DNA of 64,000 bases from Eledone cirrhosa (taxonomy: Eukaryota), in NCBI GenBank assembly GCA_964016885.1, contig OZ024741.1, positions 300,390,001 through 300,454,000 on the forward strand, in the 5' to 3' direction. The position numbers and the translations under genes are program-made. The notes under the pieces are model-generated. The model worked only from the letters and a program-made list of their open reading frames with translations. It made no database searches and was not told the origin of the DNA. Every line of letters starts with the position of its first letter. Position 1 is the stretch's first letter. Positions 28,604 through 57,750 of this stretch are shown in pieces.

Positions 28604-31600
28604 CCTTGAATCTCAGTCATTGATGTTGGTTAACTGGAAAGTCCGTTGGAATGAATATCAAGCCACTACCTGCAGCCTCAGATATTCAGGACGTATCGGA
28701 GGGTTCTTGCTGTTCCCAGCAAGCATGCCTTTTGAAGCGTTCCAAAAAGCGTGAAGGGGCCGATTTTCTTTAACCATCCCTGGAAACTTTTGGAGATAGT
28801 CCCTAGTGCGCCTATGACAATCGGGATCACTTTGAGTTCATGGCAGTTCCAAATCCTTTTCACCTCCCACTTTAGGTCCTGGTATCGGTTAATTTTCTCC
28901 CTCTCCTTCTCTTGCACTCTCGTGTCGAAAGGGCAGGCTACATCCACAATCAGGCACGATCTTTTTTCTTTGTCCACAACCACCAGGTCAGGTCTATTGT
29001 GTTCCAGTTTCTTGTCCGTCTGTATCCTAAAATCCCACAGCACCTTCACCTGATTGTTCTCCATCACCGCCTCTGGCCTATGCTCATACCATTTCTCAGA
29101 ATGTGGTAGATTGTTTACTTTGCACAGGTGCCAGTGGATCACCCTGCCCATCACATCGTGTCTCCAGCCCTTATAGTGGGTCTGGGCTAGGTGTTTACAC
29201 TCGGACACAATGTGAGCCACAGTCTCCTCTCTCTCTCCACAGATCCTGCACAGTGGGCTAGCCTCCTCCTTGTAGATATGGTGCTTCAACCACTTCGTTT
29301 TGAGGGCCTGCTCCTGCGCAGCCATTAGCATTCCTTCTGTAGCCTTTTTGAGGTCTCCTCTTCTCAACCAGTTCCATGTCTGTGGATCTCTAAATTCAGT
29401 TTTCTCAAAGAAGGTACTATGAAGGGGTTTTCCCTTAAGGCTGCTCTTCCTCCTTGATGTTATTTCTTCCCTGGACATCCCCTGGCCTACTGTCCCCTCC
29501 TTCAGTACAGTTCTGAGCATTGGCTCCTTACTATAGGTCACGTATTTGTATAGGTTGTTTTTCTCCATCTGAACACAGTCCTCTATGCTGATAAGACCTC
29601 TTCCACCCTCAGATCTCCTTAGGTAGAGTCTATCGACATCACTCCTCTTGTGGAACATGTTGTAGATAGTCAATAGCTTCCTAGTCTTCCTATCCATTTC
29701 TTTCTGTTCAGCAACATTCCATCTCAGAATTCCCGCACTGTACCTAATAATAGACACAGCTCGGGAATTTACTGCGCTTATGGCATTTCTGCTGTTCAGA
29801 TGTGACTTCAATACGCTCCTTACTCTCCGAATGTATTCAGTTCTTAACAATTCCTTCATTTTTTTGTTCTTTATGCCATCAGCCTCCAGAACGCCCAAAT
29901 ACTTGTATCCTTCCTCAGAGTCAATTTCCTTTATCATCTCACCTGTTGGTATCTGGATCCCGTTACTTCTGCTCAACCTACCCCTCTTCATCACAATGAC
30001 TCCACATTTACAAATACCAAACTGCATACATATATCACTGCTGAAAATACGGACAGTGTCAACAAGCACATCCAACTCCTTCTCACTTTTCCCGAAGAGC
30101 TTAAGATCGTCCATGAAGAGGAGGTGATTGATGGTAAGCTCTCCCCTTCTCAACTTGTATCCTGCTCTCACTTTTCGCAGCATAATGGTCAAGGGCATCA
30201 GGGCAAGGACAAACAACAGAGGGGACAGGCTATCTCCCTGGAAGATACCTCTCTTGATCTTCACGCTTCCCAAGGATACTCCAGTTGATGTCAACTCTGT
30301 CTCCCAGGACCCCATACTCCTGCCTAGCAACTGTCTGATGTTATCTGCCACCCTGAAGATCTCCAGGCTTTTGGTGATCCAGGAATGAGGCACCATGTCA
30401 AATGCCTTTCTGTAGTCTATCCATCCCATGGCAAGATCAGTGTGTCTCCTCCTGCAATTCCCCATTACCATCTTATCAATAAGCAACTGGTCCTTTGTAC
30501 CACGTGACTTCTTCGGCATCCTTTCTGTTCGTCCGGTAACAAGTTGTTTGTGTGGAGGTGATGGTAGATTTCCTCAGACACAATGCTCGTCAACAGTTTC
30601 CACATTACGGGCAGACATGTGATAGGTCTATAGTTGGTAGCATCATTACCCTTGATTCGGTCTTTCATTATCAGAACTGTGGTACCTTTTGTCAACCACT
30701 CTGGCACCTCACCCGACACCAAGCAGTCATTGAACATGGCCGTCAGCTTCGGGTGGAGGGATGTTAAATGTTTAATCCAATACCCCTGCACACCATCTGG
30801 GCCTGGTGATTTCCAGTTGGTTAGTTTTTTGGCTTGCCCCTTAAGAGTTTCAACTGTGATACTCAAATCAGTCTGTTGCTGTGCCTGCTCACCGATCTCC
30901 CTCTGTACTGTCTCAATCCACCCTGCCTGGGCATTGTGTCTAACATCCTGCTCCCATATTCCTCTCCAGAATGTTTTAGTTTGCTCCGCCCCAGGGATCA
31001 AGTCGTTGCCTCTTTCTTTGCCCTCAAGCTGTCCAAACAGCATCTTCTAGTTGTTGTCGAACATGCGGTTCTGTTTATACTGACTGACTCTGTTCTCGTA
31101 TCGCCTGATTTTTGCACTCTTTGCTACAATGCGTTGCTTCAATTCCTCTATGATAATATTTAGCTTTTTACTCCTAGTTTTGTATTTTATTTCCAGTCTA
31201 TTTTTAGTGCCTATGTTTTTTAGTGTCCCATTCAGTAGTGACTCAAGCTTTCCTATGTCATTTCTCATTTCCCCGATTTGCCCACTCAGTCGCCTCTTCC
31301 ACCACGGCTCTGCTCTTTCTTGTCTGTTGTTTCCTCTCGCTTTTATACCAAGTAGTTTCCTCACCGTATTTGCTGTTGCTCTGAGGATATTGTTGCACTG
31401 GTGAAGGCTCCTCGCCTCAAGGTATGGGATGACTTTGTTTACCTTAGCTGTTGTTTCTTTTAACTTTTTCCTGTCTACAAATCTTAGGTTCATAGGTCTC
31501 CCACTATCATTGTTCAATTCATCTACCACTAAATTTAGGATGTCAACCGAATCTTGTCCTAGCCCGTCAGCATTCATCCCCTCAGTGGCCGTATCTCTGT

Positions 31601-33141
31601 TCCAGGTATTATTTATCTCAGTACTCAGATCATTGTCTGCTTCGGGTGGTTCCTCCGTTCTCAGGACCTCCTCACCTTCATTTCCCACCGGCTCGCTTGT
31701 CTGGCATACTACACCCGCCATCTCCAAGCCATTCTCTCTGCTCAGTTCCTCCAGTTCCAGCTCGCTTATCCACCCATTAGTTCTTATTACCCGAGCCTGC
31801 CCGGCCAATTTTTGTTCATCTAATTTAAATAAACCAATCTCGTTCCAGATGTTATGCATCCGTCTCCTGTAGCCCCTCTCCTTGGGGTTACTTTTCAGGT
31901 AGCATTGCATAACAGTTCTATTCAATTCTTTCGTCCAGTTGGTTCTGGCCCCTTTCCTTCTTCTCCTTCCTCCAACATCAGCAGTATTTGGTTGACAGTC
32001 AGGTTCCTGCTGCTGAGCCAGGGGGCACCTGTTGGGTGAGAGTCTGTCACATGACGTTCTAGTCTCCATTTCACCGTTATTCGAACTGTTTATGTTCGAT
32101 ATTTAAACACTCTTATCGAGGATTGGCGAATGTATATTTACATAGCCATCTGTGGATCCGCCATCCCACTTGGCCCTTGTGTGGCATTATCACCACGATG
32201 TATACGAACACACATAAACAAACAAACACACAGGCAGAAAGGGCCCCAAAAATGAATAAGCATAAGTTTCATTGTAATGTAGTGTTCGAATGTCTGACTT
32301 AGTTTTATTTTTTAAGTTTTACTTTTTCCCCCCTCTTCTCTGTCCGTCCGCCTGCTTCTCTCTTCATTCTTATTTTCTTTACGTTTTTGGGGTTTCTTTT
32401 TTTTGTTTTTGTTTTTCTCTGTTTGTTTTTCTCGTTTTTTGCTGTTGTTGCTGTGCTGCTTTAGTTTTGTTGTTTGTTTTTTCTTTTTTCTTTTGGGTCT
32501 ATCTATATATTTTGATGCCTTCCTCTTTGTTAGTAGTAGGAATTCTATAATGTGGAAATAGCAGCCAGCAGGGAAGTGGGAGACTGGCGGCGCCAGCGAT
32601 ACTGAGACAGTGGTGGTGGTGATGTCGATACCGAGGCAGCGGTGGCGGTGATGTGACCGTATTACTGTAGTGATGGTGCTGTAGCGGAGTCAAGGGGTGG
32701 CGGCGGCGGTGATGGGATAGTGGTGGCAATGATGGCCGTAGTGAGCGGTGGCGGTGAAGGTGAAAATGTGTCGTTATCTGGCTGTTGTGTTTAGTGTACA
32801 CAGATGATGGGGTGGGTGGTGTATCTAGTTTCTGGTGTTGGTGAGTTTAGCTGTCCTATATAGTGTAGCCAGAGGAGAGGAGGGGAGGGGTTCTTCTTCC
32901 ATTTATAGCCATTTTTTTTTTTTTTTTTTGGATATACAGTGTACAATACAAAGTTGAATATTTGAATATTTGAGCCTTATAACAATATATTTTGGGTCCG
33001 AATTTTTTGGGGCTCAAGCCGGGTGCTTTACGTAGCATTTGTACTAAGAGTTGTTATTTCACAAATGGTTTAAATATGTTAAAAATTCAAAACTTACGGG
33101 AGCGATTTCATGACCTCCGTCACCTCGTGCGTCTTCTTCCC
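28604..33141 (-). mobile_element. R4/Dong-type RLE retrotransposon, family 1, full-length copy 1 with a ~1-kb 5' extension
   Basis: Flanked by (TAA)n on the sense strand. The single ORF has an N-terminal W..ELN..VMQCY..GYRRRM..W domain, RT, CCHC and RLE. Confidence 0.93.
28678..32069 (-). pseudogene. RLE family 1 ORF (about 1130 aa when reconstructed): RT, zinc finger and PD-(D/E)xK endonuclease
   Basis: KSPGPDG, NYRPITCL, IDYRKAFD, GIFQGDSLSPLLF, FMDDLK and YKYLG motifs. There is a stop at 31047 and a 1-nt deletion near 30510 relative to copy 4. Confidence 0.9.
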
Positions 33142-33212
<71 letters not shown>

Positions 33213-33219
33213 GTTATTA

Positions 33220-36200
33220 CTTTTTGAGTCTCAGTCATTGATGTTAGTTAACTGGAAAGTTTGTTGAGATGAATATCAAGCCACTACCTGCAGCCTCAGA
33301 TATTCAGGACGTATAGGAGTGTTCTTGCTATTCCCAGCAAGCATGCCTTTTGAAGCGTTCCAAAAAGCGTGAAGGGGCCAATTTTCTTTAACGATCACTG
33401 GAAACTTTTTGAGATAGTCCCTAGTGCGCCTATGACAATCGGGATCACTTTGACTTCATGGCAGTTCCAAATCCTTTTTACCTCCCACTTTAAGTCCTGG
33501 TATCGGTTAATTTTCTACCTCTCCTTCTCTTGCACTCTCGTGTCGAATGGGTAGGCCACATCCACAATCAGACACGATCTTTTTTCTTTGTCCATAACCA
33601 CCAGGTCAGGTCTATTGTGTTCCAGTTTCTTGTCCGTCTGTATCCTAAAATCCCACAGTACATTCACCTGATCGTATGGCTTATGCTCATACCACTTCTC
33701 AGAATGTCGTAAATTGTTTACTTTGCATAGGTGCCAGTGGATCACCCTGCCCATCACATCATGTCTCCAGCCCTTATAGTGAGTCTGGGCTAGGTGTTTA
33801 CACTCGGATACAATGTGAGCCGCAGTCTCCTCTCTCTCTCCACAGATCGTGCACAGTGGGCTAGCCTCCTCCTTGTAAATGTGGTGTTTCAACCACTTCG
33901 TTTTGAGGGCCTGCTCCTGCGCAGCCATTAACATTCCTTCTGTAGCCTTTTTAAGGACTCCTCTTTTCAACCAGTTCCATGTCTGTGGATCTCTAAATTC
34001 AGTTTTCTCAAAGAAGGTACTATGAAGGGATTTTTCCTGAAGGCTGCTCTTTCTCCTTGATGTTATTTCCTCCTTGGACATCCCCTGGCCTATTGTCCCC
34101 TCCTTCAGTACAGCTCTGAGCATTGGCTCCTTACTATCTGAACACAGTCCTCTTTGCTGATAAGACCCCTTGCACCCTCAGACCTCCTTAAGTAGAGTCT
34201 ATCGACATCACTCCTCTTGTGGAACATATTGTAGATAGTCAATAGCTTCCTAGTCTTCCTATCCATTTCTTTTTGATCAGCAACATTCCATCCCAGAATT
34301 CCCGCACTGTACCTAATAATAGACACAACTCTGGAATTTACTGCACTTATGGCATTCCTACTGTTCAGATGTGACTTTAATACGCTCCCTACTCTCCGAA
34401 GGTATTCAGTTCTTATCAATTCCTTCATTTTTTTGTTCTTGATGTTATCAGCCTCCAGAACGCCCAAATACTTGTATCCTTCTTCAGAGTCAATTTCTTT
34501 TATCATCTCACCTGTTGGTATCTGGATTCCGTTATTTCTGCTCAACTAACCCCTGCTCATCACAATGACTCCACACTTACTAATACCAAATTGCATACAT
34601 ATATCATTCCTGAAAATACGGACAGTGTCAACAAGCACATCCAACTCCTTCTCACTCTTTCCGAAGAGCTTAAGATCGTCCATAAAGAGGAGGTGATTTA
34701 TGGTAAGCCCTCCCTTTCCCAACCTGTATCCTGCTCTCACTTTTCGCAGTACACTGGTCAGGGGCATCAGGGCAAGGACAAACAACAGAGGGGACAGACT
34801 ATCTCCCTGGAAGATACCTCTCTTGATCTTCACGCTCCCAAGATTTCTCCAGTTGATGTTAACTCTGTTTCCCAGGACTTCATACTTTTGCTTAAGAACT
34901 GCCTGATGTTATCTGCCACCTTGAAGATCTCCAGGCTTTTGGTGATCCAAGAATGAGGCACCATGTCAAATGCCTTTTTGTAGTCTATCCATCCCATGGC
35001 AAGACCAGTGTGTCTCCTCTTGCAATTCCTCATTACCATCTTATCAATAAGTAACTGGTCCTTTGTACCACGTGACTTCTTTCGGCATCCTTTCTGTTCG
35101 TTGTTTGTGTGGAGGTGATGGTAGATTTACTCAGACATAATGCTTGTCAACAGTTTCCACATTACGGATAGACATGTGATAGGTCTATAGTTGGTAACAT
35201 CATTACCCTTGATTCGGTCTTTCATTATCAGAACTGTGGTACCTTTCGTCAACCACTCTGGTACCTCAACTGACATCAAGCAGTCATTGAACATGGTTGT
35301 CAGTTTCGGGTGGAGAGATGTTATGTTTTTAATCCAATACCCCTGCACACCATCTGGGCCAGGTGATTTTCAGTTGGTTAGTTTTTTGGCCTGCCCCTTA
35401 AGAGTTTCTACTGTGATACTCAAATCAGTTTGTTGGCGTGCCTGTTCACTGATCTCCTTCTGTACTGTCTCAATCCACACTGCCTGGTCATTATGCTTAA
35501 CACCCTGCTCCCATATTCCGCTCCAGAATGTTTTAGTTTGTTCCGGCTCAGGGGTCAAGTCGTTGCCTCTTTCTTTCCCTTCAAGCTGTCCAAACAGCAT
35601 CTACTGGTTGTTGTCGAACATGCGGTTCTGTCTATACTGGCTGACTCTGTTCTCGTATTGCCTGATTTTTGCACTTTTTGCTACAATGCGTTGCTTCAGT
35701 TACTCTATGATAATATTTAGCTTTTTCCTCCTAGTTTTGTACTTTATTTCCAGTCTATTTTTAGTGTCAATGTTTTTTAGTGTCCATTCAGTAGGGACTC
35801 AAGCTTTCCAATGTCATTTCTCATTTCCCTGATTTGACCACTCAGTCGTTTCTTCCACCAAGGCTCTGCTCTTTCTTGTCTGTTGTTTCCTCTTGCTTTT
35901 ATACCAAGTAGTTTCCTCACCGTATTTGCTGTTGCTTTGAGGATATTGTTGCACTGGTGAAGGCTCCTCGCCTCAAGGTATGGAATGACTTTGTTTACAT
36001 TAGCTGTTGTTTCTTTTAACTTTTTCTGTCTACAAATCTTACGTTCATAGGTCTCCCACTATCATTGTTCAATTCATCTACCACTAAGTTTAGGATATCT
36101 ACCAAATCTTGTCCTAGCCCGTCAGCATTCATCTCCTCAGTGGCCGTATCTCTGTTCCAGGTATTATTTATCTCAGCATTCAGATCATTGTCTGTTTCGG

Positions 36201-38103
36201 GTGGTTCCTCCGTTCTCTCGACCTCTTCACCTTCATTTCCCACTGGCTCGTTTGCCTGGAATACTCCACCCTCCATCTCCAAGATAATCTCTCTGCCCAG
36301 TTCCTCCAGTTCCAACTCGCTTATCCACCCATTAGTTCTTATTACCCGAGCCTTCCCGGCCAGTTTTTGTTCATCTAATTTAAATGGACCAATCTCGTTC
36401 CAGATGTTATGCATCCTTTTCCTATAGCCTTTCTCCTTGGGGTTACTCTTCAGGTAACATTGCATAACAGTTCTATTCAATTCTTTCGTCCAGTTGGTTC
36501 CCGGTCCCTTTCCTTCTTCTTATTCTTCCGACACCAGCAGTATTTGGTTGAGAGCCAGGTCCCTGCTGCTGAGCCAGGGAGCACCTGTTGGGTGAGAGTC
36601 TGTCACATGACATTCTAGTCTCCATTTCACCGTTATTCGAACTGTTTAGGTTCGACATTCAAACACTCTTATCGAGGATTGGCGAATGTATGGTTACATA
36701 ACCACCGGTGAATTACTTGTCTCTGGTGGTTTCGTCACTCCACGTGACTTTTGTGTGGCATTATCACGCTGTAGACGAACCCAAACAAACAAACAAACAG
36801 GCAGAAAAAACCCCAAAATTGAATAAGCATAAGTTTCATTGTAATGTATTGTTTGAATGTCTGACTTAGTTTTTCCCTTCCCTTCTCTGTCCGTCCGTTT
36901 CTTTTTCTCTTCATTTTTATTTCCTTTACGTTTTTTTTGTTGTTGCTGTGCTGCTTTGATTTTGATTTTTGTTGTTTTTTTTATTTGATTTTGACCGGGT
37001 CATCAATTCAGTCTATTTATATATTTTGATGTTTTCCTCTTTTAGTGGGAATTCTACAATGTAGCAGCGGATAGCGGGAGAGAATAGCGGCGGTAGTGAT
37101 ACTGAGGCAGCGGCAGCGGGGTGGAGGGTGGCGGTGCTGTGCCAGCAGCAACTAGCAGGAGGTAGTGGGAGGGAATAGCGGCGGTAGCGATAGTGAGGAA
37201 GCGGTGGTGGTGATGTGGTCGTATTACTTTGTTAAAACTAAAACTTGATTTTGATTATTGTTTTTTTATTTGTTTTTTTTTTGATCGGGTCATCAATTCA
37301 GTCTATTTATATATTTCGATGTTTTCCTCTTTTAGTGAGAATTCTACAATGTAGCAGGGGGTAGCGGGAGAGAATAGCGGCGGTAGTGATATTGAGGTAG
37401 CGGCGGCGATGGCGGTGCTGTGCTAGCAGCAACTAGCAGGAGGTAGTGGGAGAGAATAGCGGCGGTAGCGATAGTGAGGCAGCGGTGGTGGTGATGTGGT
37501 CGTAGTACTGTAGTGATGGTGTTGAAGTTGGAGTAGAAATTTGAGTCGACTTGACCAGAGTTTTCATCGTGGTAGTGGTGTTGGAATTGGTGGTGAAATG
37601 ATCTTTAGTGAAATTATCGTTAGTCGCGTGTATGTGTTGACATTTATTGGAATTAAACATTTTGTTAAAACTAAAACTTGAGGCAATAGTAATAGTAATT
37701 ATTATTATTATGTTGAGATTGGTGGTGGTGGTGGTGGTGAAATTGCCGTTATCGGGCTGTTGTGTTTAGTGTACACAGAGGGGTGATGGGGTAGGTGGTG
37801 TATCTAGTTTCTGATGTTGGTTAAATTGCTGTTATTTGGCTGTTCTATATAGTGTAGACAGAGGGGGTTTCCTTCCATTTATAACCATTTTCTTTTTGAA
37901 TATAAAATGTATAATACAAAATTGAATATTTGAGCGATATAACAATATATTGTGGATCCGAATTTTTTGGGACTCAAGCTGGATGTTTTATGCAACATTT
38001 GTACTAAGAATTGTTATTTCACAATTGATTTAAATATGTTAAAAAATCAAAACTTTCGGGAGCGATTTCTCGACCTTCTATCCACCATCTGTGTCTTCTT
38101 CCC
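33220..38103 (-). mobile_element. RLE family 1, full-length degenerate copy 2 with 5' extension
   Basis: Collinear with copy 1 including the extension; many stops and frameshifts; (TAA)n flanks. Confidence 0.9.
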
Positions 38104-38114
38104 TTATTCTTCCC

Positions 38115-38179
<65 letters not shown>

Positions 38180-38187
38180 ATTATTAT

Positions 38188-41100
38188 TACCTGCAGCCTC
38201 AGATATTCAGGACGTATCGGAGGGTTCTTGCTGTTCCCAGCAAGCATGCCTTTTAAAGTGTTCCAAAAAACGGGGCTGGACTAATCTTCTTTAACCATCC
38301 TTGAAAGCTCTTTGGGATAGTACCTAGTGCGCCTATGACAATCAGTACGACCTTGTCTTCATGGCAGTTCCAAATCCTTTTTACCTCCCAATTTAAGTCC
38401 TGGTATCGGTTAATGTTCTCCCTCTCATTTTCTTGTACTCTCGTGTCAAATGGGCAGGCTACATCTACAATCAGGCACGATCTCATTTCTTTGTCCAAAA
38501 CCACCAGGTCAGGTCTATTGTGTTCTAATTTATTGTCCGTCTGTATCCTAAAATACCATAGCACCTTCACCTGATCGTTTTCTATCACCGACTCTGGCTT
38601 ATCCTCATACCAATTCTCAAAATATGGTAAATTGTTTACTTAACATAGGTGCCAGTGGATCACCCTGCCCATCACATCATGTCTCCAGCCTTTATAGTGA
38701 GTCTGGGCTAGATGTTTACACTTGGATACAATGTGAGCCACAGTCTCCTCTCTCTCTCCACAGATCCTACACAGTGAGCTAGCCTCGTCCTTGTAGATAT
38801 GGTGTTTCACCCACTTCGTTCTGAGGGCCTGCTCTTGCGCAGCCATTTGCGTTCCTTCTGCAGCCCTCTTTTTAAACAGTTCCGTGTCTGTGGTTTTCTA
38901 AGTTCAGTTTTCTTAAAGAAGGTACTATGAAGGGATTTTTAATGAAGGTTGCTCTTCTTCCCTGTTGTTATTTCCTCCTTGGACATCCCCTGGTCTATTG
39001 TCTTCTACTTCAGTACAATTTTGAGCATTGGCTCCTAACTGTCAATCACGTATTTTTACAGGTTGTTTTTCTCCATCTGAATACATTCCTGTATGCTGAT
39101 AAGACCTCTTCCACCTTCAGATCTCTTTAAGTAGAATCTATCGACATCACTCCTCTTGTGGAACATGTTGTAGATAGTCAATAGCTTCCTAGTCTTCTTA
39201 TCCATTTCTTTTTGTTCAGCAATATTCCATTTCAGAATTCCCGCACCGTACCTAATAATAGACACAGCTCGGGAATTCACTGCGCTTATGACATTCCTAC
39301 TATTTCGATGTGATTTAATACGCTCCTTACTCTCCTTAGATACTCAGATCTTATCGATTCCTTCATCCTTGATGTCATCTGCCTCCAGAACACCTAAATA
39401 TTTGTATCCTTCTTCAGTGTCAATTTTCTTTTTTCATATCACCTGTTGGTACCTGGATTCCGTTGCTTCTGCTTAATTTGCCCTCTTCATCACTAGGACA
39501 CCACACTTCTTAATACCAAATTCCATATCTATATCATTACTCAAAATACGGACAGTGTCAACAGGTACATCCAACTCCTTCTCACACTTGCCAAAGAGTT
39601 TAATATCGTCCATGAAGAGGAGGTGGTTGATGGTAAGCTCTCCTTTTCCCAACTTGTATCCTGCTCTCACTTTTCGCAATATAACGGTATCACGGCAACG
39701 ACAAACAGCAGAGGGGACAAAGTATCTCCCTGGAAGATAGCTCTCTTGATCTTCACGCCACCCTAGGATTCTCCACCCGATGTTACCTCCATTTCCCAGG
39801 ACTTCATTCTTTTGCTCCACAACTGTCTGATGTTATCTGCCACCTTGACGATCTCTAGGCTTTTGGTTATCCAAGAATGAGTTACCATGTCGAATGCTTT
39901 TTTGTAATCTATTCATCCCATGGCAAGACCAGTGTGTCTCCTCTTGCAATTCCTCATTACCATCTTATCAATAAGTAACTGGTCTTTTGTACCACGGGAC
40001 TTCTTTCGGCACCCTTTCTGTTCGTCCGGTAACAAGTTGTTTATGTGGAGGTGATGGTAGATTTCCTCAGACACAATGCTTGTTACGGACAGACATGTGA
40101 TAGGCCTAATGTTGGTAACATCATTACCCTTGATTCGGTCTTTCATTGCCAGAACTGTGGTACTTTTTGTCAACCACTCTGGTATCTCATCCGACATCAA
40201 GCAGTCATTGAACATGGCTGTCATTATCGGGTGGAGGGATGTTATATTTTTCCTCCAATACACTTGCACACCATCTGGGCCTGGTGATTTCCAGTTGGTT
40301 AGGTTTTTGGCCTGCCCTTTAAGAGTTTCAACTGTGATACTCAAATCAGGTTGTTGGTGTGCTTGTTCACTAATCTACTTTTGAACTGTTTCAATCCACT
40401 CTGCCTGACTATTATGTTCCACATCCTGCTCCCACATTCCTCTCCAGAATGTCTTAGTCTGTTCCGCCTCAGCAAACAAGTCGTTGCCTCTTTCTTTCCC
40501 TTGAAGCTGTCCAAACAACATCTGTTTGTTGTCAAACATGCGGTTCTGTCTATACTGACTCACTCTGTTCTCATATCGCCTATTTCCCCCTAGTTTTGTA
40601 CTTTATTTCAAATCTATCTTTAGTGCCTGTATTGTGTTTTGTAATGTCCCATTTAGTAAGGACTCAAGCTTTCCAATGTCATTTCTCATATCCCTGATTT
40701 GACCACTCAGTCGTTTCTTCCAACAAGGTTCTGATATTTCTTGTTTGTTGTTTCCTCTCGATTTTATGCCAAGTAATTTCCTCACCGCATTTGCTGTTGC
40801 TTTGAGGATATTATTTCATTGGTGAAGGTTCCTCGCCTCAAGGTATGGGATGACATTGTTTACCTTAGCTGTTGTTTCTTTTAACTTTTTCCTGTCTACA
40901 AATCTTAGATTCATAGGTTTTCCACTATCATTGTTCATTTCATCTACCACTAAGTTCAGAATATCAACCAAATCTTGTCCTAGCTCGTCAGCATTCATTT
41001 CCTCAATGGCCGTATCTTTGTTCCAGATGTTATGTATTTCACCATTCAGATCATTGTCTATCAACCTCTTCACGTTCATTTCCCACTGGCTCGTTTGCCT

Positions 41101-41272
41101 GACATACTCCACTCTCCATTTCCAACTGAATCTCTCTGCTCAGTTCCTCCAGTTCCAACTTGCTTATTCATCCATTAGTTCTTATTACCCGAGCCTGCCC
41201 GGCCAATTTTTATTCATCTAATTTAAATAGACCAATCTCGCTCCAGATGTCATGCATCCGTCTCCTATAGCC
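38188..41272 (-). mobile_element. RLE family 1, older degenerate copy 3 (5'-truncated)
   Basis: Fragmented ORFs are collinear with copy 1; (TAA)n flanks. Confidence 0.88.
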
Positions 41273-41514
41273 TTATTATTGTTATTATTATTATTATTAT
41301 TGAATGCCATGGTTGACGGAGGCTCGGCTCTGTAAGGTATAGTAATTTTTAACCGTTAAAACAATTGTAAATTGTTTAAAACTTGAACCAAATTGTTGAT
41401 AAAGACACCCTCCTCCTCGTGAGAGGGGTCTTTCTGTCCGTTATTTGGCCCTTCGGGGTTAAATAACCAGTTATTGGGGTTTTGTACCCAAAATTTCATT
41501 TTAAACAAAAAAAC

Positions 41515-43612: not shown

Positions 43613-43647
43613 GTGGTCTTTCCCATCTTTTCCACTCTATTTTAAAC

Positions 43648-47067: not shown

Positions 47068-47326
47068 ACTAAAGGTGGAAAACTGGGAGAGGGCACTTGC
47101 CTTGGTGGTCAGGGTCATTGTGGCTTTTTACTGGGCTTTCTCCACAAATGTCCCTCCGAAGTCTCCCCCCTATTGGGGAATTTTTCATTGTTATTTTCAT
47201 TGTTATTTTTGTTACATCCTCTGTTTTTGTTTTTTACACGCAGAAATGCCCATTTGTACCGTCCTGCATTGTCCTGCACTGTCCTTAATGTCTACTTTAT
47301 GTAAACCCTTGTGGTTAATAAAGAAA

Positions 47327-47382
<56 letters not shown>

Positions 47383-47384
<2 letters not shown>

Positions 47385-48727
47385 AGTTGCATTTATCTTG
47401 CTTTATGTTCATACGAGTTATCACCAAGTCACAACCAGTGACCTCAAGAGACAACAAGGTCCGCCATGTTCAAGAAAGAACATACATACTCACACATGCA
47501 TCTTTAGTGTTTAGACTTGTGATTTACTTTTAATCAGGCACGATCTTTTTTCTTTGTCCAGAACCACCAGGTCAGGTCTATTGTGTTCCAGTTTCTTGTC
47601 CGTCTGTATCCTAAAATCCCACAGCACCTTCACCTGATCGTTCTCCATCACCGCCTCTGGCCTATGCTCATACCATTTCTCAGAATGTGGTAAATTGTTT
47701 ACTTTGCACAGGTGCCAGTGGATCACCCTGCCCATCACATCATGTCTCCAGCCCTTATAGTGGGTCTGGGCTAGGTGTTTACACTCGGATACAATGTGAG
47801 CCACAGTCTCCTCTCTCTCTCCACAGATCCTGCACAGTGGGCTAGCCTCCTCCTTGTAAATATGGTGTTTCAACCACTTCGTTTTGAGGGCCTGCTACTG
47901 CACAGCCATTAACATTCCTTCTGTAGCCTTTTTGAGGTCTCCTCTTCTCAACCAGTTCCATGTCTGTGGATCTCTAAATTCAGTTTTCTCAAAGAAGGTA
48001 CTATGAAGGGATTTTCCCTGAAGGCTGCTCTTTCTCCTTGATGTTATTTCCTCCTTGGACATCCCCTGGCTTACTGTCCCCTCCTTCAGTACAGTTCTGA
48101 GCATTGGCTCCTTACTATCAGTCACGTATTTGTATAGGTTGTTTTTCTCCATCTGAACACAGTCCTCTATGCTGATAAGACCTCTTCCACCCTCAGATCT
48201 CCTTAGGTAGAGTCTATCGACATCACACCTCTTGTGGAACATGTTGTAGATAGTCAATAGCTTCCTAGTCTTCCTATTCATTTCTTTTTGTTCAGCAACA
48301 TTCCATCTCAGAGGAAGAAGAAGGAAAGGGGCCAGAACCAACGGGACGAAAGAATTGACTAGAACTGTTATGCAATGTTACCTGAAAAGTAACCCCAAGG
48401 AGAGGGGCTATAGGAGACGGATGCATAACATCTGGAACGAGATTGGTATATTTAAATTAGATGAACAAAAATTGGCCGGGCAGGCTCGGGTAATAAGAAC
48501 TAATGGGTGGATAAGCGTGCTGGAACTGGAGGAACTGAGCAGAGAGAATGGCTTGGAGATGGAGGGTGTAGTATGCCAGACAAACGAGCCAGTGGGAAAT
48601 AAAGGTGAAGAGGTCGAGAGAACGGAGGAACCACCCGAAGCAGACAATGATCTGAATACTGAGATAAATAATACCTGGAACAGAGATACGGCCACTGAGG
48701 AGATGAATGCTGACGGGCTAGGACAAC
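47383..48727. mobile_element. Chimera: family 2 3'UTR (-), family 1 internal fragment (47531-48311, -) and an inverted family 1 N-terminal fragment (48312-48727, +)
   Basis: Each part matches 52279-52415, 28950-29730 or 31555-31968 respectively. Confidence 0.85.
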
Positions 48728-48752
48728 AATTATTATTATTATTGTTGTTATT

Positions 48753-51700
48753 CCTTGAATCTCAGTCATTGATGTTGGTTAACTGGAAAGTCCGTTGGAT
48801 TGAATATCAAGCCACTACCTGCAGCCTCAGATATTCAGGACGTATCGGAGGGTTCTTGCTGTTCCAAGCAAGCATGCCTTTTGAAGCGTTCCAAAAAGCG
48901 TGAAGATGCCGATTTCCTTTAACCATCCCTGGAAACTTTTGGAGATAGTCCCCAGTGCGCCTATGACAATCGGGATCACTTTGACTTCATGGCAGTTCCA
49001 AATACTTTTCACCTCCCACTTTAGGTCCTGGTATCGGTTAATTTTCTCCCTCTCCTTCTCTTGCACTCTCGTGTCGAACGGGCAGGCCACATCCACAATC
49101 AGACACGATCTTTTTTCTTTGTCCATAACCACCAGGTCAGGTCTATTGTGTTCCAGTTTTTTGTCCGTCTGTATCCTAAAATCCCACAGCACCTTCACCT
49201 GATTGTTCTCCATCACCGTCTCTGGCCTATGCTCATACCATTTCTCAGAATGTGGTAAATTGTTTACTTTGCACAGGTGCCAGTGGATCACCCTGCCCAT
49301 CACATCGTGTCTCCAGCCCTTATAGTGGGTCTGGGCTAGGTGTTTACACTCGGACACAATGTGAGCCACAGTCTCCTCTCTCTCTCCACAGATCCTGCAC
49401 AGTGGGCTAGCCTCCTCCTTGTAGATATGGTGCTTCAACCACTTCGTTTTGAGGGCCTGCTCCTGCGCAGCCATTAGGATTCCTTCTGTAGCCTTTTTGA
49501 GGTCTCCTCTTCTCAACCAGTTCCATTATCTGTGGATCTCTAAATTCAGTTTTCTCAAAGAAGGTACTATGAAGGGATTTTCCCTTAAGGCTGCTCTTCC
49601 TCCTTGATGTTATTTCCTCCTTCGACATCCCCTGGCCTACTGTCCCCTCCTTCAGTACAGTTCTGAGCATTGGCTCCTTACTATAGGTCACGTATTTGTA
49701 TAGGTTGTTTTTCTCCATCTGAACACAGTCCTCTATGCTGATAAGACCTCTTCCACCCTCAGATCTCCTTAGGTAGAGTCTATCGACATCACTCCTCTTG
49801 TGGAACATGTTGTAGATAGTCAATAGCTTCCTAGTCTTCCTATCCATTTCTTTTTGTTCAGCAACATTCCATCTCAGAATTCCTGCACTGTACCTAATAA
49901 TAGACACAGCTCGGGAATTTACTGCGCTTATGGCATTTCTGCTGTTCAGATGTGACTTCAATACGCTCCTTACTCTCCGAATGTATTCAGTTCTTAACAA
50001 TTCCTTCATTTTTTTGTTCTTTATGCCATCAGCCTCCAGAACACCCAAATACTTGTATCCTTCCTCAGAGTCAATTTCCTTTATCATCTCACCTGTTGGT
50101 ATCTGGATCCCGTTACTTCTGCTCAACCTACCCCTCTTCATCACAATGACTCCACATTTACCAATACCAAACTGCATACATATATCACTGCTGAAAATAC
50201 GGACAGTGTCAACAAGCACATCCAACTCCTTCTCACTTTTCCCGAAGATATTAAGATCATCCATGAAGAGGAGATGATTGATGGTAAGCTCTCCCCTTCC
50301 CAACTTGTATCCTGCTCTCACTTTTCGCAGCATAATGGTCAAGGGCATCAGGGCAAGGACAAACAACAGAGGGGACAGGCTATCTCCCTGGAAGATACCT
50401 CTCTTGATCTTCACGCTTCCCAAGGATACTCCAGTTGATGTCAACTCTGTCTCCCAGGACCCCATACTCCTGCCTAGCAACTGTCTGATGTTATCTGCCA
50501 CCCTGAAGATCTCCAGGCTTTTGGTGATCCAGGAATGAGGCACCATGTCAAATGCCTTTCTGTAGTCTATCCATCCCATGGCAAGATCAGTGTGTCTCCT
50601 CCTGCAATTCCCCATTACCATCTTATCAATAAGTAACTGGTCCTTTGTACCACGTGACTTCTTTCGGCATCCTTTCTGTTCGTCCGGTAACAAGTTGTTT
50701 GTGTGGAGGTGATGGTAGATTTCCTCAGACACAATGCTCGTCAACTGTTTCCACATTACGGACAGACATGTGATAGGTCTATAGTTGGTAACATCATTAC
50801 CCTTGATTCGGTCTTTCATTATCAGAACTGTGGTACCTTTTGTCAACCACTCTGGCACCTCACCCGACACCAAGCAGTCATTGAACATGGCCGTTAGCTT
50901 CGGGTGGAGGGATGTTAAATGTTTAATCCAATACCCCTGCACACCATCTGGGCCTGGTGATTTCCAGTTGGTTAGTTTTTTGGCCTGCCCCTTAAGAGTT
51001 TCAACTGTGATACTCAAATCAGTCTGTTGCTGTGCATGCTCACCGATCTCCCTCTGTACTGTCTCAATCCACCCTGCCTGGGCATTGTGTCTAACATCCT
51101 GCTCCCATATTCCTCTCCAGAATGTTTTAGTTTGCTCCGCCCCAGGGATCAAGTCGTTGCCTCTTTCTTTCCCCTCAAGCTGTCCAAACAGCATCTTCTG
51201 GTTGTTGTCGAACATGCGGTTCTGTTTATACTGACTGACTCTGTTCTCGTATCGCCTGATTTTTGCACTCTTTGCTACAATGCGTTGCTTCAGTTCCTCT
51301 ATGATAATATTTAGCTTTTTCCTCCTAGTTTTGTATTTTATTTCCAGCCTATTTTTAGTGCCTATGTTTTTTAGTGTCCCATTCAGTAGTGACTCAAGCT
51401 TTCCTATGTCATTTCTCATTTCCCCGATTTGCCCACTCAGTCGCTTCTTCCACCACGGCTCTGCTCTTTCTTGTCTGTTGTTTCCTCTCGCTTTTATACC
51501 AAGTAATTTCCTCACCGTATTTGCTGTTGCTTTGAGGATATTGTTGCACTGGTGAAGGCTCCTCGCCTCAAGGTATGGGATGACTTTGTTTACCTTAGCT
51601 GTTGTTTCTTTTAACTTTTTCCTGTCTACAAATCTTAGGTCCATAGGTCTCCCACTGTCATTGTTCAATTCATCTACCACTAAATTTAGGATGTCAACCG

Positions 51701-52256
51701 AATCTTGTCCTAGCCCGTCAGCATTCATCTCCTCAGTGGCCGTATCTCTGTTCCAGGTATTATTTATCTCAGTATTCAGATCATTGTCTGCTTCGGGTGG
51801 TTCCTCCGTTCTCAGGACCTCTTCACCTTCATTTCCCACTGGCTCGCTTGTCTGGCATACTACACCCGCCATCTCCAAGCCATTCTCTCTGCTCAGTTGC
51901 TCCAGTTCCAGCTCGCTTATCCATCCATTAGTTCTTATTACCCGAGCCTGCCCGGCCAATTTTTGTTCATCTAATTTAAATAAACCAATCTCGTTCCAGA
52001 TGTTATGCATCCGTCTCCTGTAGCCCCTCTCCTTGGGGTTACTTTTCAGGTAACATTGCATAACAGTTCTATTCAATTCTTTCGTCCAGTTGGTTCTGGC
52101 CCCTTTCCTTCTTCTCCTTCCTCCAACATCAGCAGTATTTGGTTGACAGTCAGGTTCCTGCTGCTGAGCCAGGGGGCACCTGTTGGGTGAGAGTCTGTCA
52201 CATGACGTTCTAGTCTCCATTTCACCGTTATTCGAACTGTTTATGTTCGATATTTA
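48753..52256 (-). mobile_element. RLE family 1, copy 4; complete ORF region with one frameshift, lacks the 5' extension
   Basis: ORF 49407-52220 (937 aa) plus 48827-49516, with a +1 indel near 49526; (TAA)n flanks. Confidence 0.93.
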
Positions 52257-52278
52257 ATTCGATATTATTATTATTATT

Positions 52279-54010
52279 TGCATTTATCTTGCTTTATGTT
52301 TATACGGGTTATCACCAAGTCACAACCAGTGACCTCAAGAGACAACAAGGTCCGCCATGTTCAAGAAAGAACACACATATTCACACATGCATCCTTAGTG
52401 TTTAGACTTGTGATGTACTTATATTGACAGGATCTTCCTTAGTATATGGGCAGTTCCCATTAGTACTATCTTTTGTATTTCTCCTATACGCGGGTTTCCT
52501 GGGATTTGCGATAAGTAGTCGTTAGACCCCTTAGGTATCATTCCCAGAGCGCCTACAACCACTGGTATTGTTTTAGTTCTCAATTTCCACATTTTTCCAA
52601 TTCTATCTCCAGGTCCTTATACTTGCTCAATTTTTCAAATGTTTTTATAGATACATTCTTGTCTATTGGAACAGACATATCAATTAGCAGGCATACCCTC
52701 CTTTGAAAGTCCTTCAATATTATATCAGGTCTATTTGCATCTATTTTTCGGTCTGTTTGGATGCTAAAGTTCCACAAGATTGAGATGTGATCTTTTTCAA
52801 GTATGGGAGGTGGTTGATGCTCCCACCAATTCTTTTGATGGGGCAGGTCAAAATGCTTGCACATTATCCAATGTATGTATTGTGCAGCTCTGTCATGCCT
52901 GTTTAGGTATTCGGTTGGAGCTATAGGACTGCACATTGAAATTATATGGTCAATGGTCTCTGGTTGTTTTTTACATACACGGCATAATGGGCTGCACCCA
53001 TTTTTTATTATGTTGGCTTGGTAATTTTTTGTTGGCAGACACTGATCTTGTGCGGATATAATCAGTCCTTCAGTCTCCGATTTCAGTCCAGAGGATGCCA
53101 ACCACTGATGGGTTAAAGTTTTGTCAACATCAGGATTGTTAGCTCGCTCTGGGTATTTTCCATACAGAGGCTTTTCTTGCCATTTCTTACCCAGTTTCTG
53201 TAGCAGTTCTTTCTTTGCAGTTACTTTTACCTGCTTTGCTTTTTCTGTGTTTTCCATTTCAGCAGTAAATGGGACTTCTGAAATTTGTAGTCCATTACTG
53301 TATCTTTGTGCATCTTTTGTAATGGAATATGATCTTTTGGTGCTTTCGTGTTTCAAAACGAGTTTGATCATCCAATCATGTGATTCCCTTAGATATGTGG
53401 ATAATCCAATTGTTGCAGTTTTCAACGCAATGTCTAACTGGATTAACCCACGTCCCCCTTCTTTCCTAGGGAGATATATTCTATCTATGTCTGCCTTAGG
53501 GTGATGCATTCTGTGCATGGTTAAGAATTTTCGGATTTTTGTATCGAGCCTACGGATCTCTGTGCTTGACCAGTTGATGACATTGTAACTGTAGGTTACT
53601 ACTGGTATGGCAAGCGTGTTTATGGCATCGATCCTATTCCTTGCATTCAATTCCGTTCTTAAGATTGCTCTGACTCTGCGGTAACATTCCTTCCTTATCC
53701 TTTCCCTCATTGTCGAGTGCTTGATTCCGTCTCCTTCACAAACACCTAGATATTTGTAAGTTTGTTCTTGATCAAGCTCTCTTATCACGTTCCCCCGATC
53801 AAGATTAATGTCTGAACTGTTCAGCAGCTTTCCTCTGGTGAACGTTGCTTTGGCGCATTTATCCAGTCCAAACTCCATTTTAATGTCATCACTGAACTGC
53901 TTCACAGTGGATAATAGCCCTTGCAATTGTTCATCATTTTTTGCAAATAGTTTCAGGTCATCCATGTAGAACAGGTGATTAATGGTTTTGTCATAGACTC
54001 TATATCCATA
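52279..54010 (-). mobile_element. RLE family 2, 5'-truncated
   Basis: HLFYMDDLKLF, YKYLG, AQDQ, CRVC..H..C, RHD and RPDI..IDMSVP motifs; frameshift near 52595; (TAA)n flanks. Confidence 0.92.
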
Positions 54011-54012
54011 TT

Positions 54013-54077
<65 letters not shown>

Positions 54078-54107
54078 GTTGCTGTTGTTGTTGTTGTTGT
54101 TGTTGTT

Positions 54108-56820
54108 CAGTCTTTCAAGGCGTGGTTCACTTCGCTCACTGTTATTCAACCTTTTACATTGAAACGTTGATATCGTTTTGAAGCCAGTATCCTTGTGAGC
54201 TGGTTCATTTAGCCTCACTTGAACCCCTTAGAGGCCCTTTGAAACACGCACTTCATTTTCCAAGAAAATTAAGATGATAGACAAAACCTTTTCGTCAACT
54301 AAATAGAATCGTGGGCTGTCCATAGAGTGAAACAGCCAAAATTCTGAAAACATTAACAGCAGCAGCAGCATCTACAAGAACAGAATCATCATCATCAGCA
54401 ACAGTGACCAAAATTTATGTCGTGAAAATATAGCCGGCTATCCAGGTCTGCCAATGTTTACCTTGCTGAATGCTGCCACCCAATGACGGAAACAACGGAA
54501 ACTAAAATCAAAATGAACACACTCAGCAGCAACAATGTAAATGAGAACAACATGACTACAACAGAAACAAATGAAACAAAAAATAATACTAACAATAACA
54601 ACAGCAACGGCAGCGACAACAACAACAATGAGAATAACAACAACAACAACACAAACGCAAAACCAAATATTTCTTTTGCGAAAGCGGAGAACAAGAACGA
54701 AACGATTGAGCCAGGAACAACTGAATAAGGCCAGACGAATGGTGAAGAAAAATGGCTACAGGGTCTACCTCACTCCTCCATCAAACACCATGAAACATCG
54801 GCGGCTATGTACGGTATCACACCGTAGAATTAGCACGAAAACACGCCGAGTGGAGCAGGCATCCGAGTTTTAGATCCGAAAGGCTTTGGGACATGTTTGG
54901 GCTCAGAAAGCCAACATCATACGTGGACGAAGATATGGGACCGTGGATGTGTTCTTTGCAACACCACAACAATCCAGAGAGCACTCTATAGCTCCACTAA
55001 AGAGCGACGAGCTCACACTAGTCCCAAGTTACTGCGGATAAAGATTCGTGAGAGTAAAGGTGACCCAATTCGCTGGCTGATGTGTGCCGTCCTCGCCGAC
55101 ATCAAGGACAACACAAAGGTCATCGAGGTGATAAAAATAAAACTGGAGAACTGGCCCGGATCTGGAATGGAGCTCCTGATTGTGACGAGAAGGAGGTTGG
55201 AAAACTGGATCTGTGAAAAAAGAAACCAGAAAAGAAAGGAACATCCCCCCCCCCAAAAAAAAAATAGAGGGCGAAACAAACAAGAAAACAAGAAAGTTAA
55301 GACTGCTATGCTACCACCACCACCCACATCAGCATTATCAGCTCCATCGAGACAAATACTATCATCACCGTCATCAACCCCAACACCACCATCACCAAGA
55401 CCATAAAAAAACACCAACAAGCGAAACAAACAAACACAACAAAGCAACCAAACTGAAATACACTACACAGCATTAAACTTGAACAATAAACAATTATTAA
55501 ACTACATCAAACACAACGCTAGCATCACAGAGAAAAAATACACAACACCCCAAAATTTCACACCACTCTCACACATACAATTCACAAGTATCACACAGAA
55601 AATATAACCAAACCTAAAGTTATAATTCCCCAAGGACATCGGATTTCTCCGGCAAACACTTTCCAGGAGGATATATAAAGACATTCTTCAGGAGAGGGCC
55701 AGAAACAGTCAGAAGGACGGGAAAAACATCCTTCCTCCACAAAAACAGAGGTAAGTGGTCTTTTCCATCTTTTGCCACTCCTTTTCAACATGTCCTTACT
55801 CGGAATAGGCAGCATAAATGCATGTGGGAGGAAAACCTGTTCAATGACCTCAGGTCAATGAACATAGATGTGGTGGCCATCAGCAAGACCAGAATTTCCG
55901 AGGCGCATGCTTTCGCACCCATCTTCGGCAGTTACTATATGTACGCATCTACAAGCCGGCCGGGATCGTGAGGCCGAGTCGCCGTGTTGTTTCGGAGAGG
56001 CCTGGATCTCATGATACGAACCATCTTCCTGGACCCAGAAGGTAAGTCGGTGATGCTGGACGTGACCAGCAGCAAAAGCGATGCTTTAGGTTTGTGGCTG
56101 CTTATGTCCCGACAGGGGCAGGACGGCCTGACTTCATTAGGCCATTGCAGACCTTCCTAGGAACTTTAATATAATTTGGCGATTGAAACGGATCTTGGAT
56201 GCCCGCTGGGATTGTGTGGGATTAACGGATAGGGGAGGAGAGTGTAAAAGCTTCGCAAACCTGCTCAGATGTTTCCAACTGTCTGACAGGTACAGACTGG
56301 ATGTTCCGAATGTGTTTATGTGGAAATGGACAAACCGCATCGGATCATCCAGATCGTCTCAGGTAGAGTATTTTGTAAGACGGTCGTTAGTTCTAACATA
56401 GGTTGTCCCCAATTGAAGATAGTCAACTACACGGACCAAAAATTATTGAACTGGGTGTTCGAATTAGTTAGACATCATAGACAGGGACCAGTACACCGGA
56501 AGCCAACCGCGTCGCCGACAACGCGCAAAGCCTACAGAGACCGGATTAGCGAACTAGTTAGGTGGGCGTTGACGGGGTCAGTCATCAACAACAAATGGTG
56601 GTGGGCCCTGAACAGGGTGATTAGAATAGAATCCATTAGGTTTAGTAAGGCGTTAGCAATAGAGAAAAATAGAGCAGAGGGAGAACTAGTTAGGAAACTA
56701 GACGATGCGCTTAGTAAAGGCATTGCAATCGATTGGCTGTCGGCAAATTTTTATAAGCAAAGCAGGAAGGATGCGTTGTCAGAGCTAGGGCACCTGCTCT
56801 CAGACACGAGAGGAAGAAAG
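54108..56820 (+). mobile_element. Tx1 copy C: decayed 5'UTR, ORF1 and 5' part of ORF2 (3'-truncated)
   Basis: SFAK..ARRMVKKNGYRV..CTVSHR..IRKALGHVW. ORF2 starts at ATG 55790 and aligns to the copy B APE region. Confidence 0.85.
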
Positions 56821-56847
56821 CTGTTGCTGTTGTTTTTGTTGTTGTTA

Positions 56848-57750
56848 TTTTTACTTTGGTGCTCGTTTGCGACAGAAGGTTGGTTCACATCGGCTCCAGA
56901 AGGTTGGTTATTTTCAGTTGTTTCAAAGTGGAATTTTTTCACTGTATATGTTTCATTCAAAGACGACTGAAAAATATTTGGGCTTTTGAGACCGAATACT
57001 TGAGTTTCTTTTTTTTTTAATTTCTTTTCTTCAATGTTACAGCCTCTGTCGTGCGACAGAGTTTGTAACATTGAGAGGAAAAATCCTGTCCGCACCAACA
57101 CCACCATTATAGATAATGTTACTACCAACAGCGCAACTGATAACAATAACAATAACAACCCTAACAACGATACTAGTAACACCAACAACAACATGAACAA
57201 AGACAGCACCAACACGGCAGCAAATAGGAGACAAATAAAAGCAACAACAACACCAAAACTAGCTGCAACAGTAACAACAATACCAACAACAAGAAAGCTC
57301 GAAAGAACAACGACAACACTACCAACAACAGCAGCAATGACAACAATGTGATTGTAAATGGCACTGTGAACAAAGAGAAGCATTATTTCGCTGCTGTAAC
57401 TAAAAAAAGGTGATGTTTTAGCATGTACCTTAGTGAAAAGAACTCATGGAATCTTACAAAAAAGAGCAAACCGGGACCAACTTAATCGTCCCGGCAGAAG
57501 CCATAGAGACCCTGGAGATGCATTTCAGTGCAGACTCACAAGGTGGCGATCACTCTGCAAGCAGATATTGAATCTGCGCAGAAATGCATCAGAGATAACA
57601 CGGAGTACACAGTGAGGCGCAGACAATATGACACCATATTGGTGCTATTTAAGTCAGAAGACCTCGCTGTCTAACACTCAGTGGTCCTTTGCAAAGCCAG
57701 CAAGGTCATCATATACCTCTTCCACGTGGGAATACGAACAGTTCGAGTTT
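56848..57750 (+). mobile_element. Divergent Tx1-type 5'UTR and ORF1 N-terminal fragment (copy D)
   Basis: An N/T-rich tract is followed by FAAVTKK and ..YTVRRRQYDTILVLFKSEDLA.*HSV..YLFHVGIRTVR, matching the ORF1 core IRRGQKYGTVDVFF..EEAREHS..PSYCGQRLVK. The leader motif is also present. Confidence 0.6.

Follow-up and report, generated by a model that had tools for sequence, protein, structure and literature searches.

The retrotransposon Dong targets TAA repeats (PMC3812793, PMC3774820), with one of these sources calling it an apurinic/apyrimidinic endonuclease (APE)-type element (PMC3812793) and the other putting it in the R4 lineage (PMC3774820). Tx1 long interspersed elements (LINEs) are described from other simple repeats, including (TC)n for Kibi, (TTC)n for Koshi and (TTCC)n or (TTTC)n for crocodilian Tx1 (PMC4494074), and the Bombyx mori elements TRAS1 and SART1 insert into a shared repeat, each running opposite to the other (PMC7265360; clade background in PMC4640811). 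Dong-R4 families are abundant and, like L1-Tx1 families, recently active in Octopus vulgaris (PMC13282606). Here we analyse a 64,000-nucleotide stretch of the Eledone cirrhosa genome (assembly GCA_964016885.1, contig OZ024741.1, positions 300,390,001 to 300,454,000, forward strand), hereafter the window, together with a sample of loci from the rest of the genome. In both, Tx1-like LINEs with an APE and Dong/R4-like elements with a restriction-like endonuclease (RLE) lie against AAT/ATT microsatellites in fixed and opposite orientations.

Like Dong as these sources portray it (Bombyx mori, DongAg and DongBg), the two RLE families of the window, RLE-A and RLE-B, have a single open reading frame (ORF) with reverse transcriptase (RT), CCHC finger and RLE, and read (TAA)n on the sense strand; their 5′ junction, TAA|G, equals the Dong junction primer quoted in PMC3774820. 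They differ from Dong in that two families co-exist and have a 5′ region of ~1 kb in common. Dong has a 5′ ribozyme like that of hepatitis delta virus; Rfam gave no ribozyme match in the 64-kb window, and a home-made ribozyme descriptor gave one weak, G-U-rich match in RLE-B and none in two RLE-A 5′ ends. The Tx1-like element resembles the described microsatellite Tx1 elements in having an ORF1 and an APE-RT-zinc finger ORF2, in its L1-group affinity, in its simple-repeat target and in forming tandems around duplicated target. In contrast to Kibi and Koshi, its target is (ATT)n on the sense strand and its duplications span 30-160 bp.

The 3.0-Gb genome was searched with element ends, flanks being excluded from the queries. 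Per search, 40 of 466-1,601 candidates were scored and the best 30 loci kept, so young copies are over-represented. Counting ends at 294 loci outside the window, with duplicate junctions removed and a run defined as at least three units, we found that 332 of 384 element ends touch an AAT/ATT run and that none does so on the wrong strand. On their sense strands, RLE elements read (TAA)n and Tx1-like elements (ATT)n. For Tx1, an ATT run was present at 82 of 88 3′ ends (6 with none), 60 of 61 full-length 5′ ends (1 with none) and just 4 of 22 truncated 5′ ends (18 with none), with TAA at 0 in every class; for RLE, a TAA run was present at 107 of 108 3′ ends (1 with none), 24 of 33 full-length 5′ ends (9 with none) and 55 of 72 truncated 5′ ends (17 with none), with TTA at 0 throughout. 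This tabulation of orientation against flank strand, proposed in the preliminary description of the window, thus revealed neither random orientations nor a general lack of 5′ runs.

The same rule governs the tracts between elements, being obeyed by 227 of 230 at 334 loci; the other three comprise two RLE 5′ inversions and one short interspersed element (SINE) mislabelled as RLE. Tx1 and RLE neighbours joined at ordinary ends across a tract were antiparallel in 80 of 80 cases, and two apparent same-strand pairs were set aside as one 5′ inversion and one mislabelled SINE. In a control sample of 20 evenly spaced 10-kb pieces of the genome, there were 8 runs of at least five units; a young Tx1 or RLE end abuts 3 of them, each time oriented as expected. 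These results confirm that the polarity is real, holds across the genome sample and is not due to chance. That insertion is random in orientation, with selection or deletion leaving the observed arrangement, has a negligible probability: we found no point in its support, wrong-strand ends number 0 even among copies with mutual identities above 99%, and the junction phase is exact in 57 of 57 Tx1 5′ ends.

The arrangement parallels that of TRAS1 and SART1 in that two elements use one repeat in opposite directions. TRAS1 and SART1 belong to the R1 clade, and both carry an APE and have a telomeric target, whereas here one APE and one RLE element share dispersed interstitial microsatellites, probably at hundreds of loci or more. 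Because TRAS/SART and Dong are precedents, the polarity itself is of limited surprise.

A SINE of ~180 bp also obeys the Tx1 polarity, in 35 of 35 tracts involving it, and is likely moved by the Tx1 LINE, whose 3′ end its own resembles by eye. Copies lie in the window at 14534-14714, 18877-19059, 20660-20832, 24847-24996 and 26152-26334, and at many other loci.

Since each family ends in the repeat found beside it, the repeats could be mere 3′ tails (TAA for RLE, ATT for Tx1), with clustering and polarity as by-products. About 190 of 196 3′ ends touch a run, the remainder being mostly short or interrupted runs, and 18 of 22 truncated Tx1 5′ ends have no run, as tails alone would give. We nevertheless regard this explanation as largely refuted and very improbable. 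Full-length Tx1 elements touch an expected-strand run at 60 of 61 5′ ends, as do RLE elements at 79 of 105, and pre-existing interrupted tracts were reused as insertion sites. Moreover, in 31 head-to-head tracts the run is flanked by the 5′ ends of an RLE and of a Tx1 and is neither element's tail, which identifies the AAT/ATT repeat as the target. In addition, 49 tail-to-tail Tx1/RLE tracts were counted, for geometry only.

Within the window, the polarity is displayed by an array at 28,604-57,750 and by a smaller, reversed cluster at 1,279-9,492, made up as follows.

28604-33141, minus strand: RLE-A copy 1, full length, single RT, CCHC and RLE ORF, broken
33142-33219, plus strand: (TTA)23 tract linking RLE copy 1 (5′ end) with RLE copy 2 (3′ end)
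33224-38103, minus strand: older full-length RLE-A-type copy 2 with a broken ORF, 88% to copy 1
38115-38189, plus strand: (TTA)21 tract
38188-41272, minus strand: RLE-A-type copy 3, 5′-truncated, 85-86% to copy 1
41273-41301, plus strand: head-to-head ATT tract flanked by the 5′ ends of an RLE and a Tx1, neither element's tail
41302-47328, plus strand: Tx1B, Tx1-like LINE, full length, young, AATAAA near the 3′ end
47329-47383, plus strand: (ATT)18 tail-to-tail tract between a Tx1 3′ end and an RLE 3′ end
47384-48312, minus strand: chimeric RLE fragment, an RLE-B 3′ end (47387-47547) and an RLE-A internal piece (47532-48312)
48316-48726, plus strand: inverted RLE-A 5′ piece
48753-52257, minus strand: RLE-A copy 4, 5′-truncated, 98.3% to copy 1, 948-amino-acid open frame
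52277-54012, minus strand: RLE-B, the second RLE family, 5′-truncated, young
54022-54107, plus strand: (TTA)18 followed by a (TTG)n tract
54108-56825, plus strand: old Tx1-like copy lacking its 3′ part, 72-78% to the young families
~56850-57750, plus strand: old Tx1-like 5′ fragment with an ORF1-like start, typed by eye from ORF1-like motifs
1279-7194, minus strand: full-length Tx1A copy, flanked on both sides by (ATT)n in the sense direction
7195-7267, plus strand: (AAT)n tract, flipping to (TTA)7 at 7247-7267
7314-9492, plus strand: three RLE fragments (A, B, A), 5′-truncated, TAA-type runs between them

The array contains six RLE-type insertions, all on the minus strand, and three Tx1-like copies, all on the plus strand, with (TTA)n runs on the plus strand separating most elements. 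The claim of the preliminary description that every RLE copy here is minus and every Tx1 copy plus was thus upheld, as was the reversal that it placed at 1.3-9.5 kb, where one Tx1 lies on the minus strand, three RLE fragments lie on the plus strand and the plus strand reads (AAT)n. Its picture of a single 29-kb (TAA)n tract fails, as perfect ATT runs make up just 312 of 29,147 bases and the array is mostly element DNA. Nor is the inverted fragment at 48312 the sole exception to polarity: it is an RLE 5′ inversion and not a break in polarity, most likely a twin-primed inversion belonging to the insertion at 47384-48312 and seen in the same form at L208 and L310. Other local departures do exist. 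One is the tract flip at 7247-7267, beside the point where a plus-strand RLE folds back at its 5′ junction. Another is the (TTG)n-like sequence in front of both old Tx1 copies (54108 and 56850), although an ATT run lies at, or a few bases from, the 5′ end in 7 of 7 fetched loci that hold relatives of the 54108 family. The 56850 fragment shows weak 5′ similarity to Tx1A (z 5.1). In RLE-A copy 1, a 5′ region of ~1 kb begins GGGAAG and (TAA)n lies at both ends on the sense strand; in the Tx1B copy at 41302, ORF1 starts at 41515 and is frameshifted and ORF2 (43648-47067) encodes a 1,139-amino-acid APE-RT-zinc finger protein. Copy identities spread from 98% down to ~72%, so the pile accumulated over time. 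The RLE-B and RLE-A parts of the chimeric fragment at 47384-48312 join with a 16-bp overlap, possibly reflecting a template switch between the RNAs of both families.

The RLE ORF is a single frame in which RVT_1 RT is followed by CCHC finger, RHD and PD-(D/E)xK endonuclease motifs (CRIC..H....C, RHD, PD..D.ACP and KINRY). In PDB it matches R2 proteins best, the RLE part aligning weakly, and the RLE-A and RLE-B proteins are 38-41% identical. R2 elements have an N-terminal zinc finger or Myb domain, unlike R4 and Dong; the 948-amino-acid RLE frame has no N-terminal zinc finger or Myb Pfam family, and none is visible in the translations. Relatives include lepidopteran proteins of ~1,200 amino acids at 33-35%. 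Architecture and target suggest that RLE-A and RLE-B are Dong/R4-like. Their 5′ regions (32106-33141; L167:2630-2950) are ~74% identical over 340 bp, suggesting exchange of the 5′ region; signs that the RLE 5′ region came from Tx1 are weak (z 3.7 and 5.7 in 2 of 10 RLE/Tx1 comparisons).

For the Tx1-like element, Pfam identifies Exo_endo_phos (APE), RVT_1 and zf-RVT in ORF2, with catalytic motifs present, and the best PDB match is L1 ORF2 (E 1e-52); ORF1 encodes ~698 amino acids. Among 48 copies, at least 41 ORF2 and at least 27 ORF1 frames were counted, these being lower bounds because the start finder missed variants. On its architecture and target specificity we assign the element putatively to Tx1, and call it Tx1-like here. 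Closer relatives are 40-44% identical; one short match is to an Octopus sinensis protein, which together with the repeat landscape suggests a cephalopod host. The family is present in three other organisms or samples among four contig sets searched. For distant relatives on metagenome contigs, most of which end near the ORF, no ATT run was found in the 16 of 80 that were read for flanks. In a small sample, Tx1 families alone made up 9.4 of 200 randomly chosen kb. A splice-donor-like GGTAAGT lies at the end of Tx1 ORF1 (window ~43595) in 10 of 10 copies compared.

The explanation that we favour overall, and hold to be probable, combines opposite nicks by the two enzymes, annealed Tx1 5′ ends, joining of RLE 5′ ends inside the tract, and growth by crossover and duplication. 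In target-primed reverse transcription (TPRT), it is the complement of the element's sense sequence that is nicked and serves as primer; this would be the AAT strand for Tx1 and the TTA strand for RLE. The L1 endonuclease nicks at T^A. The same step is nicked by the APE domain of TRAS1 (PMC7265360). Seven distinct Tx1 3′ junctions lie in interrupted, readable spacers, and with overlap to the element's last bases allowed, six of the seven fit a T^A nick and the seventh C^A. The Tx1-like APE would thus nick the AAT strand at a T^A step, often at the tract edge, and prime reverse transcription there, and the Dong/R4-like RLE enzyme would nick the TTA strand to the same end. Fixed opposite orientations are likely to arise from such opposite-strand nicking. 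The preliminary description had both endonucleases using the same microsatellite from opposite strands; the opposite orientation is observed, and the nicking of opposite strands is deduced. Because each insertion would leave runs on both flanks, the site should stay usable.

Alternatively, both enzymes might nick either strand and only the strand that pairs with the repeat read through at the 3′ end of the RNA would prime, so that polarity is set mainly by RNA-DNA pairing. Three of the seven distinct marked Tx1 3′ junctions have target matching the element's last two or three bases (TC or ATC), so pairing of the RNA 3′ end with the target may also matter, and each family carries at its end the repeat as read on its own sense strand. 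We consider pairing unlikely to be the main determinant, however. Marked spacers meet the Tx1 3′ end with no added or copied tail, and swapping the endonuclease domain moves specificity in TRAS1/SART1 (PMC7265360). An ATA interruption after three ATT units at 7 loci was considered as an RNA-borne tail marker and rejected, because it occurs after 2, 3 and 4 ATT units at similar rates (34 matches) and the seven copies carry differing 3′ haplotypes.

The two elements appear to finish their 5′ ends differently. Full-length Tx1B has the 5′ junction ATTATT|GAAT in 57 of 57 cases, behind at least 6 units (one 17-nucleotide run); RLE 5′ junctions are variable, with TAATAA|GGGAA in 18 of 42. In six full-length Tx1 copies the 3′ run is interrupted and the 5′ run is pure, whereas in a truncated Tx1 copy (L430) the interruption is repeated on both sides as a 16-17-bp duplication. 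In the melanogaster-type R1, full-length RNA carries target sequence that anneals and gives exact 5′ junctions, and truncated copies have target-site duplications (TSDs), according to PMC2718515. By analogy with this R1, which the exact and pure 5′ ends and the L430 duplication parallel, the Tx1 RNA likely carries a few target repeats in front as a leader. Full-length Tx1 5′ ends would then be completed by annealing and not by free joining, and RLE would join its 5′ end inside the tract, giving variable junctions.

Long duplications around RLE yielded one candidate (L163) among 77 rows plus 20 loci, 19 of which had both ends. Other flagged rows proved to be the element's own 3′ end, and a 19-bp duplication at L184 is ambiguous because it lies in periodic sequence. 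At several full-length RLE junctions, the first 5-6 bases of the 5′ end are repeated (38090-38115; L066, L120, L208). At L174:4155, L041:1116, L258:1165 and L020:2985-3019, 5′-truncated Tx1 and RLE copies stand back to back with no tract between them, which would result either from loss of the DNA separating head-to-head neighbours or from a single event that both elements primed from opposite strands.

The growth of arrays is best read from their spacers. A first Tx1 array comprises nine full copies and one 3′-truncated copy, head to tail, with spacers of 30, 36, 50 and 51 bp all taken from one interrupted tract, whose motif has 8 matches in 3.0 Gb, all within this array; a second has spacers of 127, 127, 140 and 160 bp. 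In every duplicated spacer the left end is variable and the right end is the next copy's first base. At five junctions (four in the first array, one in the second), the joined copies differ at 19-23 sites in the 5′ third, which marks them as separate insertions with long duplications. We compared haplotypes of 48 full Tx1 copies, giving 25 adjacent pairs and 1,045 different-locus pairs, with private changes ignored. Identity over at least 2,000 5′ columns was found in 11 of 25 adjacent pairs against 2 of 1,045 different-locus pairs, and the same test on 3′ columns gave 4 of 25 and 56 of 1,045. Thirteen copies share at least 1,400 5′ columns with the downstream neighbour, and 2 are identical to it; in 8 of the 13 the 3′ part is not identical to that of the upstream neighbour, or there is no upstream neighbour. 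The 3′-truncated copy resembles the downstream copy over its first 1,445 columns and other copies over the remainder.

The eight chimeras and the fixed right end make annealing of cDNA to the downstream copy the simplest reading. Where a copy already lies downstream, upstream-primed cDNA would anneal to it and DNA synthesis would copy its 5′ part and the spacer, producing 30-160-bp duplications and 5′-chimeric neighbours. We lean, with moderate confidence, towards this step of annealing and cDNA switching as the way in which Tx1 5′ ends are completed in arrays. Repeated insertion into duplicated target followed by unequal exchange is described for R1 tandems (PMC2718515; bioRxiv 10.1101/158386), and the arrays here resemble R1 in forming tandems by reinsertion, in exact full-length 5′ junctions and in TSDs at truncated copies. 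They differ in that the R1 TSDs given there are ~14 bp (33 nucleotides in one array), as against 30-160-bp spacers, a fixed right end and 5′-chimeric neighbours. In L1, cDNA can leave the RNA and pair with nearby DNA, duplicating DNA, and 5′ inversions arise by twin priming (bioRxiv 10.1101/2024.08.27.596794). Such templated insertions are rare and somatic in that account (22 cases), whereas here the process seems to be a frequent way for arrays to grow in the germ line.

A competing explanation accepts the targeting and ascribes the long spacers and 5′-shared neighbours purely to DNA-level events, namely unequal crossover, slippage and gene conversion. Two hybrids (C2b_29165 and C2c_16451) are of the crossover type, as is the pattern in an RLE triple, and whole-unit duplicates occur. 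Yet crossover between copies cannot give variable spacer lengths with a fixed right end; sharing is strongly 5′-biased even though the 3′ third is less diverse; the first copy of the two-copy array C1b matches the second in its 5′ part, with no copy upstream of it to act as donor; and the 3′-truncated copy contains a foreign middle segment. DNA-level events as the whole explanation are therefore rather unlikely, though more plausible than polarity set by RNA pairing.

Several points nonetheless weigh against the account that we favour. The assignment of the nicked strand is a deduction from TPRT as a general model. Of the 22 truncated Tx1 5′ ends, 18 have no ATT run, several of them representing internal deletions or switches of subfamily. 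A pure 5′ run in a copy whose 3′ run is interrupted also fits an interruption that was brought in at the 3′ end. DNA recombination is evidently at work in these arrays: three of the 13 5′-sharing copies carry the upstream neighbour's 3′ part, as unequal crossover predicts, and the RLE triple shows the crossover pattern; the eight chimeras could come from several crossovers with donor loss, or duplication followed by cDNA replacement of the 3′ part would give similar chimeras, one of which (C2arr_9949) differs from its upstream neighbour at just 2 shared sites. Three pairs are whole-unit duplicates (C2d, C4a and L442). L442 had been a candidate for a 571-bp insertion duplication, which we rejected in favour of a whole-unit duplicate because its copies differ at only 4 sites; the 469-bp RLE fragment in the 571-bp spacer was also copied. 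Identical pairs could be assembly duplicates, which divergent copies and differing spacers cannot be. As read from these copies, arrays grow by several routes, including repeated insertion, unequal crossover and local or whole-unit duplication. The self-expanding arrays of the preliminary description stand in so far as the target is regrown by insertion, and are incomplete in omitting unequal crossover and local duplication.

Other features of the window and the sampled loci are recorded here. A third family, RLE-C, is represented by a truncated copy (11922-13883, minus strand) with (ACAT)n at both ends on the sense strand; copies at L161 also precede (ACAT)n, and RLE-C is probably an RLE element that targets another microsatellite. 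At L032, L034, L112, L188 and L329, a host repeat recurs in which (AC)n adjoins interrupted (AAT)n, holding RLE at some loci and Tx1 at others, in opposite orientations, and appearing empty at L329. A 104-bp near-perfect inverted repeat (9485-9588 and 9730-9832) cuts the 3′ end of the last RLE fragment and resembles a small DNA transposon. A 1.65-kb inverted duplication of 90% identity (15380-18837) looks like another mobile element; the 254-amino-acid frame within it (16315-17079) has no Pfam match. At 57956-60332 (plus strand), broken frames end in a segment that is GIY-YIG-like by eye, with no Pfam match, possibly from a Penelope-like element.

In the literature searched, which did not extend to Repbase or to Kojima and Fujiwara 2004, we found no AAT-targeting Tx1; nor, with Repbase and the original Dong paper likewise outside the search, did we find an APE/RLE pair on one microsatellite or 5′-chimeric arrays of this kind. 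We put forward tentatively, and with some doubt, that an AAT-targeting Tx1-like LINE routinely finishes by a cDNA switch and, together with an RLE element entering from the other strand, builds mixed clusters. The 5′-end completion of non-LTR (non-long terminal repeat) retrotransposons is a long-standing open step, and because the arrays hold naturally marked spacers and distinguishable neighbours, a homology-directed route is directly testable in them. If the proposal is true, arrays would rescue incomplete cDNAs as full-length recombinant elements, cDNA switching would duplicate up to hundreds of flank bases and seed new targets, and tail-to-tail neighbours in mixed clusters could produce antisense transcripts of one another. 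With two unrelated nucleases that probably choose opposite strands of a single three-letter repeat, the pair would let one ask cleanly whether orientation is set by the enzyme or by the RNA, and such paired elements may explain part of the repeat clustering in cephalopod-like genomes.

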